Source: Escherichia coli
GTDB taxonomy: Bacteria > Pseudomonadota > Gammaproteobacteria > Enterobacterales > Enterobacteriaceae
DNA: 530 bases
Direction: 5' to 3' (one strand)
Assembly: GCF_003334765.1 (NCBI RefSeq)
Contig: NZ_QOWT01000114.1
Every line of letters starts with the position of its first letter. The first letter of the stretch is position 1. Position numbers and translations under genes: made by a program. Shown piece by piece: positions 1-530 of this stretch. Under the pieces are notes generated by a model. The model searched no databases, had not been told where the DNA came from, and saw only the letters and a program-made list of their open reading frames with translations.

Positions 1-57
1 GTCCTTCATCGCCTCTGACTGCCAGGGCATCCACCGTGTACGCTTAGTCGCTTAACC
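1..57 (-). rRNA. rrl: 23S ribosomal RNA, 5'-terminal fragment (gene continues beyond the window start)
   Basis: The reverse complement of 1-57 reads GGTTAAGCGACTAAGCGTACACGGTGGATGCCCTGGCAGTCAGAGGCGATGAAGGAC, which I recognise as the canonical 5' end of enterobacterial 23S rRNA. Mature 5' end placed at plus-strand position 57 from recalled E. coli sequence, not from a search. Confidence 0.93.
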
Positions 58-164
58 TCACAACCCGAAGATGTTTCTTACGATTCATCATCGTGTTGCG
101 AAAATTTGAGAGACTCACGAACAACTTTCGTTGTTCAGTGTTTCAATTTTCAGCTTGATCCAGA

Positions 165-177
165 TTTTTAAAGAGCA
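165..177 (-). promoter_or_regulatory. Spacer boxA-like transcription antitermination element (NusB/NusE binding site in rrn transcripts)
   Basis: The minus strand reads 5'-TTGCTCTTTAAAAATCTGG-3' across 160-178. Its core TGCTCTTTAAAAA matches the boxA consensus TGCTCTTTAACAA at 12 of 13 positions. A second boxA in the 16S-23S spacer is an established feature of E. coli rrn operons. Confidence 0.65.
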
Positions 178-217
178 AATATCTCAAACATCACCCGAAG
201 ATGAGTTTTGAGATATT
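178..217 (-). other. Extended imperfect hairpin in the spacer RNA with a C(UUCG)G tetraloop
   Basis: Plus-strand 178-188 (AATATCTCAAA) is the perfect reverse complement of 207-217 (TTTGAGATATT), giving an 11-bp outer stem. Inside it, CATC (189-192) pairs with GATG (200-203), with a 3-nt bulge at 204-206. On the transcribed strand the apex reads CAUC-UUCG-GGUG, a stable tetraloop closed by C-G with a U-G wobble. Confidence 0.6.
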
Positions 218-250: not shown

Positions 251-326
251 TGGCGTCCCCTAGGGGATTCGAACCCCTGTTACCGCCGTGAAAGGGCGGT
301 GTCCTGGGCCTCTAGACGAAGGGGAC
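251..326 (-). tRNA. gltT/U/V/W: tRNA-Glu (anticodon UUC), complete 76-nt gene with encoded 3' CCA
   Basis: The reverse complement of 251-326 is GTCCCCTTCGTCTAGAGGCCCAGGACACCGCCCTTTCACGGCGGTAACAGGGGTTCGAATCCCCTAGGGGACGCCA. It has a 7-bp acceptor stem (GUCCCCU/AGGGGAC), a 5-bp anticodon stem (CCGCC/GGCGG) and a 7-nt loop CU-UUC-AC; the anticodon corresponds to plus 290-292 (gaa). The T-arm GGTTCGAATCC and terminal CCA (plus 251-253) are present. It matches the E. coli tRNA-Glu of the spacer-Glu rrn operons. The paralog cannot be decided from this window; minus-strand placement would fit gltW of rrnG only if the contig follows K-12 orientation. Confidence 0.97.
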
Positions 327-497
327 ACGAAAATTGCTTATCACGCGTTGCGTGATATTTTCGTGTAGGGTGAGCTTTCATTAATAGAAAGCGAACGGCC
401 TTATTCTCTTCAGCCTCACTCCCAACGCGTAAACGCCTTGCTTTTCACTTTCTATCAGACAATCTGTGTGAGCACTGCAAAGAACGCTTCTTTAAGG
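327..497 (-). other. 16S-23S internal transcribed spacer, proximal part (16S to tRNA-Glu)
   Basis: Lies between the 16S 3' end (498) and the tRNA-Glu 5' end (326) on the same strand. No ORF or independent signal; contains a 7-bp perfect palindrome at 340-356. Confidence 0.9.
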
Positions 498-530
498 TAA
501 GGAGGTGATCCAACCGCAGGTTCCCCTACG
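498..530 (-). rRNA. rrs: 16S ribosomal RNA, 3'-terminal fragment (gene continues beyond the window end)
   Basis: The reverse complement of 498-530 reads CGTAGGGGAACCTGCGGTTGGATCACCTCCTTA, the conserved 3' end of bacterial 16S rRNA including the anti-Shine-Dalgarno CCUCC. Mature 3' end placed at plus 498. Confidence 0.95.

Follow-up and report, generated by a model that had tools for sequence, protein, structure and literature searches.

The boxA-like motif upstream of the 23S gene in an Escherichia coli rRNA operon segment is very probably the known spacer boxA

Do the boxA elements of rRNA operons act mainly in antitermination, or mainly in the co-transcriptional folding and processing of the transcript? 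The question bears in particular on the copy that precedes the 23S gene, which is much less studied than the copy in the 16S leader, and it is raised by a short motif in the DNA analysed here. The window, by which we mean the whole analysed stretch of 530 bases, is the reverse complement of a segment of an Escherichia coli rrn operon. The rrn operons of several E. coli strains are 100% identical to it, and a match to the window was present in 5,426 of the 5,426 complete E. coli genomes searched. Strain FORC 064 has an identical copy (locus L001) at the rrnB position, flanked by murI and murB, and the RefSeq annotation of this copy comprises 16S, tRNA-Glu, 23S and 5S. The window is not an exact substring of any K-12 operon; the few spacer positions that differ fall outside the boxA and its flanks.

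All of the rRNA and tRNA sequence in the window lies on the minus strand. In the direction of transcription, the window contains the last 33 nt of the 16S rRNA (498..530; Rfam SSU_rRNA_bacteria model positions 1501-1533, and RefSeq annotation), a 171-nt spacer between 16S and tRNA-Glu (327-497), the tRNA-Glu(UUC) of the 16S-23S spacer (251..326; identified by ARAGORN, by the Rfam tRNA model at 60.1 bits and by RefSeq annotation), a 193-nt spacer between tRNA-Glu and 23S, and the first 57 nt of the 23S rRNA (1..57; Rfam LSU_rRNA_bacteria model positions 1-57, and the RefSeq annotation of L001). The 171-nt spacer is the long form, as in K-12 rrnB and rrnG, the corresponding spacer in rrnC and rrnE being 85 nt long, and it contains an inverted repeat at about 328-365. 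The core of this repeat is the sole terminator-like site in the window (339-357), which is antisense (plus strand) and at chance level. A scan of the window detected no promoter-like site, and the single open reading frame of at least 30 aa encodes 33 aa and lies over the tRNA. Several weak Rfam matches (SNORD24, ceN33, mascRNA, Tymo tRNA-like and plastid psbI-rps4, all with E > 0.1) scored far below the gathering thresholds and were dismissed as chance.

A preliminary description of this DNA had placed a near-consensus boxA on the minus strand of the tRNA-23S spacer, at 160-178. We located the 13-base sequence TGCTCTTTAAAAA as an exact match at 177..165, inside that range; it occurs once in the window, on the minus (rRNA-sense) strand, which is also the strand of 16S, tRNA-Glu and 23S. 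The element, which reads UGCUCUUUAAAAA in the pre-rRNA and is a predicted site for NusB/NusE (S10), begins 73 nt past the 3' end of tRNA-Glu and ends 107 nt ahead of the 23S 5' end. The designation as near-consensus was borne out, since the motif agrees with the rrn leader boxA consensus TGCTCTTTAACAA at 12 of 13 positions (one mismatch) and fits the consensus core UGCUCUUUA at 9 of 9 positions (core as quoted in PMC6614797). When windows were shuffled and searched with up to two mismatches, the mean number of matches was 0.06, and 11 of the 200 shuffled windows contained any match.

Alignment with the leader boxA of the same operon and with the annotated E. coli rrn spacers, two checks that the preliminary description had suggested, gave the same picture. 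In L001 the leader boxA (TGCTCTTTAACAA) is located at 3348-3360, 131 nt before 16S, and the spacer boxA (TGCTCTTTAAAAA) at 5354-5366; the two are the same at positions 1-10 and 12-13 and mismatch only at position 11. With up to two mismatches allowed on both strands of the 10.5-kb locus, only two sites were recovered, the leader copy (no mismatch) and the spacer copy (one mismatch), both in the sense orientation, which argues that the motif is not a chance match. Each of the seven K-12 MG1655 operons likewise contains exactly two boxA sites, both on the sense strand: a leader copy with the sequence TGCTCTTTAACAA, 131 nt before 16S in all seven operons, and a spacer copy with the sequence TGCTCTTTAAAAA, identical to the motif in the window in 7 of 7 operons and lying 98-107 nt before 23S. 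The spacer boxA is invariant despite unrelated upstream flanks, which carry tRNA-Glu in rrnB, C, E and G and tRNA-Ile/Ala in rrnA, D and H. The block common to both types of spacer starts 2-3 nt upstream of boxA, and from boxA to 23S it is nearly identical across the seven operons. Because concerted evolution keeps this block near-identical, the invariance among the seven operons is weak evidence when taken alone, and the search was therefore extended beyond E. coli.

For this purpose, a genome collection was scanned with a conserved anchor from the 23S 5' end (GGTGGATGCCYTGGCA, 16 nt), which is independent of boxA, yielding 120 loci from many phyla. Some of these loci are not 23S genes, because the anchor also finds chance matches in protein-coding DNA. 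One such case is a Klebsiella MAG (L078) that had seemed to be a counterexample lacking boxA: its anchor match at 501-516 (minus strand) is a chance match within protein-coding sequence, and Rfam detected no rRNA there. Hamming distance to the E. coli 13-mer was discarded as a cross-phylum measure, as it proved too strict and the distributions for the sense and antisense strands overlapped except in the tail. The best sense-strand matches nevertheless form a clear family, exemplified by TGTTCTTTGAAAA, CGTTCTTTAAAAA and TGCTCTTTGACAA. We then used the transition-tolerant core G[CT]TC[CT]TT[AG]A, which was chosen after the best matches had been seen and was applied unchanged in the controls, on the 400 nt before 23S in 85 genomes. 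Sense-strand matches to the core occurred in 23 of the 85 genomes, compared to one genome with an antisense match, none with a match inside 23S and a mean of 1.38 of 85 in dinucleotide shuffles. A stricter set of 48 genomes, defined by a second 23S signature (GATGAAGGAYG) and searched with a slightly broader core, gave a sense-strand match in the spacer in 23 genomes and an antisense match in one; this set is conservative, because the signature filter was over-strict and dropped true 23S loci, including those of Pseudomonas and Vibrio. In the stricter set, 12 of the 13 sites in tRNA-bearing spacers lie downstream of the last tRNA, i.e. at the homologous position. Absence of the motif from the homologous position in related rrn spacers had been named at the outset as an outcome that would speak against it; instead, boxA-like cores precede 23S on the sense strand in many phyla.

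The distribution is not uniform. Most of the Alphaproteobacteria and many of the Actinomycetota sampled had no match to the core, and most of the sampled Alphaproteobacteria matched neither the E. coli-type core nor a variant with G at position 5. This variant (CGTTGTTTGAGAA or CGTTGCTTGAGAA) was observed in four Actinomycetota loci (L029, L068, L064 and L091), where it lies 38-99 nt before 23S, much nearer to the 23S start than the boxA of E. coli.

Which structures surround the element? Directly 5' of boxA, RNA folding predicts a boxB-like hairpin (178..217, minus strand) that ends immediately at boxA nucleotide 1. For the 76-nt stretch the folding energy is -19.5 kcal/mol (z -4.4), a stability that was not reached by any of 200 shuffled sequences. 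In the spacers of the Ile/Ala type a hairpin of unrelated sequence ends 2 nt before boxA (z -3.4). The order boxB then boxA is the one described for rrn operons (PMC6614797, PMC10250234, PMC8632103). The boxB region of the FORC 064 leader, in contrast to the spacer hairpin, does not fold significantly better than its shuffles (z 0.23). In rrnG (L003 3383-3460, minus strand) we observed a different inner stem and loop (AGACUGUUAAGUCU, compared to UCAUCUUCGGGUGA at 178-217 of the window), with the outer stem and the position adjoining boxA retained, such that structure is conserved and sequence is not. A boxC-like element above chance was not found past the spacer boxA: TGTGTGGG with up to two mismatches gave 7 matches versus 3.8 expected, and on the sense strand past the spacer boxA there is a single match, TGTGAGGT, which falls at the 23S 5' end (55-62). 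Antitermination in rrn operons reportedly does not require boxC (PMC6614797).

On its 3' side the element adjoins a strand of a processing helix. Cofolding of the 23S flanks predicts 58-60 intermolecular pairs. The pre-23S leader-trailer helix that they form has its leader (5') strand at 58..166 (minus strand), and in each of the 8 E. coli operon sequences this strand starts from boxA position 12. The partner of the strand is the 23S-5S spacer, and the strand contains the RNase III site. According to the fold predictions, boxA is a single-stranded segment with the upstream hairpin on one side and the leader-trailer helix on the other, except that the local MFE fold pairs boxA nucleotides 2-3 marginally (2 bp) with bases upstream. 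The spacer boxA is thus predicted to be bordered by the hairpin on one side and, on the other, by the 5' base of the helix for pre-23S processing, and cofolding places the leader boxA likewise at the base of the 16S leader-trailer helix. Beyond E. coli, the comparison covered 17 taxa whose locus includes a complete 23S, with mononucleotide shuffles as control; in 11 of the 17, complementarity between the 23S 3' flank and the 45 nt that follow the boxA-like site reached z <= -4. The start offsets of these helices are soft, because RNAduplex tends to stretch a duplex across the whole query segment. The preliminary description could support no regulatory protein-binding signal in the window other than boxA; as a small amendment, the window also holds further signals, namely the boxB-like hairpin and strands of two RNase III processing helices, the second belonging to 16S (see below).

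The same region matches the Rfam family StyR-44 (RF01830) at 65-173 (minus strand; 124.9 bits, E 1.6e-21). StyR-44 was cloned as a 109-nt RNA (Salmonella Typhi npcRNA 44) and lies upstream of 23S in all rrn operons; its discoverers could not exclude that it is a metastable intermediate of rRNA processing. The match has its 5' end at boxA nucleotide 5 and its 3' end 8 nt before 23S nucleotide 1, and it occupies the stretch predicted to form the leader strand of the pre-23S leader-trailer helix. Although it overlaps the motif (window 173..65), StyR-44 is an RNA fragment, probably a processing intermediate corresponding to the leader strand of that helix, and neither a protein-binding signal nor the boxA itself.

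The spacer boxA has been known since the late 1980s, is treated in current reviews and is present in every E. coli rrn operon. Berg, Squires and Squires (1989, J Mol Biol 209:345) reportedly described it in the E. coli rrn operons, and the title of a study by Pfeiffer and Hartmann (1997, J Mol Biol 265:385) is said to tie it to efficient 23S rRNA synthesis, with a reported effect of spacer boxA mutation on downstream rRNA synthesis or polymerase modification. The motif in the window has the same sequence, strand, position and preceding hairpin as this element in 7 of 7 K-12 operons, with no detectable difference in boxA or its flanks. We conclude with high confidence that it is the spacer boxA of a tRNA-Glu-type E. 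coli rrn operon at the rrnB position and that it acts as RNA rather than as DNA. Since the element has long been described, the value for annotation is small; the case serves as a positive control in which a real, short RNA-level signal was named on the correct strand from sequence alone.

Current accounts of rrn operons agree on two sets of signals. Leader and spacer each contain boxA and boxB, and each boxA is a site where RNA polymerase becomes modified (PMC6614797); a second boxB-boxA-boxC set is located upstream of the 23S gene (PMC10250234); and nut-like elements of the leader and of the 16S-23S spacer nucleate the assembly of the rRNA elongation complex (PMC8632103). The proposal that the internal boxA keeps the polymerase modified through 23S is accordingly the standard reading in these publications. 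The leader boxA is the copy used in studies of NusB/NusE binding and, according to reviews, in the cryo-EM structures (PDB 6TQN, 6TQO) of the rrn transcription antitermination complex (rrnTAC). In the crystal structure, base-specific contacts of NusB/NusE are confined to boxA nucleotides 1-8 (PMC3177189), and the Kd of NusB:NusE for the rrnG leader boxA is 5-8 nM (PMC2800207). Nucleotides 1-8 of the spacer boxA are identical to those of the leader copy, the mismatch at position 11 lying outside the contacted nucleotides, and because of this identity we strongly infer that NusB/NusE would bind the spacer copy as well. The two copies are further alike in the preceding boxB region and in their location at the 5' base of a leader-trailer helix; the spacer copy differs in carrying A instead of C at position 11, in lying mid-operon rather than after the promoters, and in that no boxC-like GU-rich match above chance follows it.

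The arrangement also resembles nutL and nutR of phage lambda, in which a single-stranded boxA for NusB/NusE likewise adjoins a hairpin and nucleates a Nus complex on RNA polymerase. The lambda nut sites are, however, organized as boxA-spacer-boxB and act with the N protein, whereas in the rrn operons the hairpin is 5' of boxA and no N protein takes part. Moreover, rrn boxA binds NusB:NusE about 10-fold tighter than nut boxA does (5-8 nM versus 80-90 nM; PMC2800207).

Together, these features suggest how the spacer boxA might work. Once RNA polymerase has moved past tRNA-Glu, the nascent RNA would expose the boxB-like hairpin and then the single-stranded UGCUCUUUAAAAA, and the NusB-NusE(S10) heterodimer would bind boxA nucleotides 1-8. 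With NusA, NusG, SuhB and S4, an rrnTAC could then be formed, or renewed, on the polymerase shortly ahead of the 2.9-kb 23S gene, and the polymerase modified in this way would elongate faster and resist pausing and Rho. A second loading site is plausible because, once RNase III cuts the 16S leader-trailer helix, the leader boxA would be separated from the RNA still being made, and the spacer copy may thus serve to renew the complex after this cleavage. The tethered RNA probably also helps the long-range pre-23S helix to form, because boxA lies at the 5' base of that helix.

If the element is both the spacer boxA and a binding site for NusB/NusE, its main job might still be RNA chaperoning, an alternative that concerns function rather than identity and is compatible with antitermination. 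Here, the complex would tether the 5' strand of the pre-23S helix to the polymerase until the 3' strand is made 2.9 kb later, which would permit rapid RNase III processing during transcription and correct assembly of the 50S subunit. Singh et al. (2016) argue that antitermination is not the main role of the Nus factors on rRNA (PMC4807359), and co-transcriptional folding and processing may be that role (PMC4807359; bioRxiv 10.64898/2026.03.17.712431). In vitro, a stably assembled rrnTAC increases the extent to which RNase III processes 16S co-transcriptionally, from ~3% to over 30% (bioRxiv 10.64898/2026.03.17.712431), and insertions past the leader boxA phenocopy deletion of boxA (PMC10250234). 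The pre-23S helix, which is predicted to start at boxA position 12 in each of the eight operon sequences from E. coli, and the same adjacency signal in 11 of 17 other taxa point in the same direction, but the adjacency is the prediction of an energy model, controlled by mononucleotide shuffles and soft in its start offsets, and the direct experiments that were found all concern the 16S leader. The title of the 1997 study, moreover, is said to point to transcript yield. On this balance we regard chaperoning as the main job of the spacer copy as a serious contender that is nonetheless somewhat doubtful.

A more specific form of this idea extends to 23S a tether role already put forward, and subjected to test, for the 16S leader copy. 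The spacer boxA would be primarily a tether that, while the 2.9 kb of 23S are synthesized, keeps the helix's 5' strand where RNA leaves the polymerase and drives co-transcriptional closure of the helix and the release of pre-23S by RNase III, and the adjacency of boxA and helix would be the selected feature. This proposal strikes us as rather unlikely in so strong a form.

We also considered that the motif is conserved for reasons unrelated to the Nus factors, either as the end of the pre-23S helix or of the StyR-44 fragment, kept uniform by gene conversion, or mainly as a binding site for ribosomal protein S1. The StyR-44 match does begin within boxA, the block from boxA to 23S is near-identical in the seven operons, and S1 is reported to bind boxA (cited in PMC8632103). 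However, the 10 nucleotides that the motif has in common with the leader boxA are predicted to be unpaired and outside the helix, the core recurs in a strand-specific manner before 23S in distant phyla with unrelated flanks, a processing intermediate could not be excluded by the authors who described StyR-44, and S1 would need to displace NusB/NusE in the solved complexes (PMC8632103), all of which makes this explanation very improbable. Finally, the locus, seven-operon and cross-phylum searches effectively refute the idea that a short AT-rich consensus was matched by chance, or that the motif is a signal at the DNA level (promoter, terminator or coding sequence): despite the A/T-rich 3' half of the motif and the occasional match in shuffled windows, it is an exact match on the correct strand and at the correct position, repeated in seven operons, and the promoter, terminator and ORF searches described above offer no such signal at the motif.

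The one position that distinguishes the two copies deserves separate mention. Position 11 is C in the leader and A in the spacer in all seven K-12 operons and in the rrnB of FORC 064, so that the leader AACAA includes the triplet ACA, which is missing from the spacer AAAAA. A MazF cleavage site has been reported inside the leader BoxA (PMC12541390), and judging from the sequences, the invariant C-to-A difference would remove the MazF ACA site, with the possible consequence that the spacer copy resists MazF. The difference between leader and spacer is not general, because other gammaproteobacteria (Vibrio, Shewanella, Colwellia, Glaciecola and Litoricola) have AACAA in the spacer copy.

The second processing helix in the window belongs to 16S. 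Cofolding of the 16S flanks from L001 predicts 63 intermolecular pairs, in which the trailer (3') strand of the 16S leader-trailer helix, at 417..492 of the window (minus strand), pairs with the leader boxC region (L001 about 3362-3390). Because this trailer strand pairs with the leader boxC, the plus strand of the window at 465-472 (TGTGTGAG) resembles boxC, with one mismatch.
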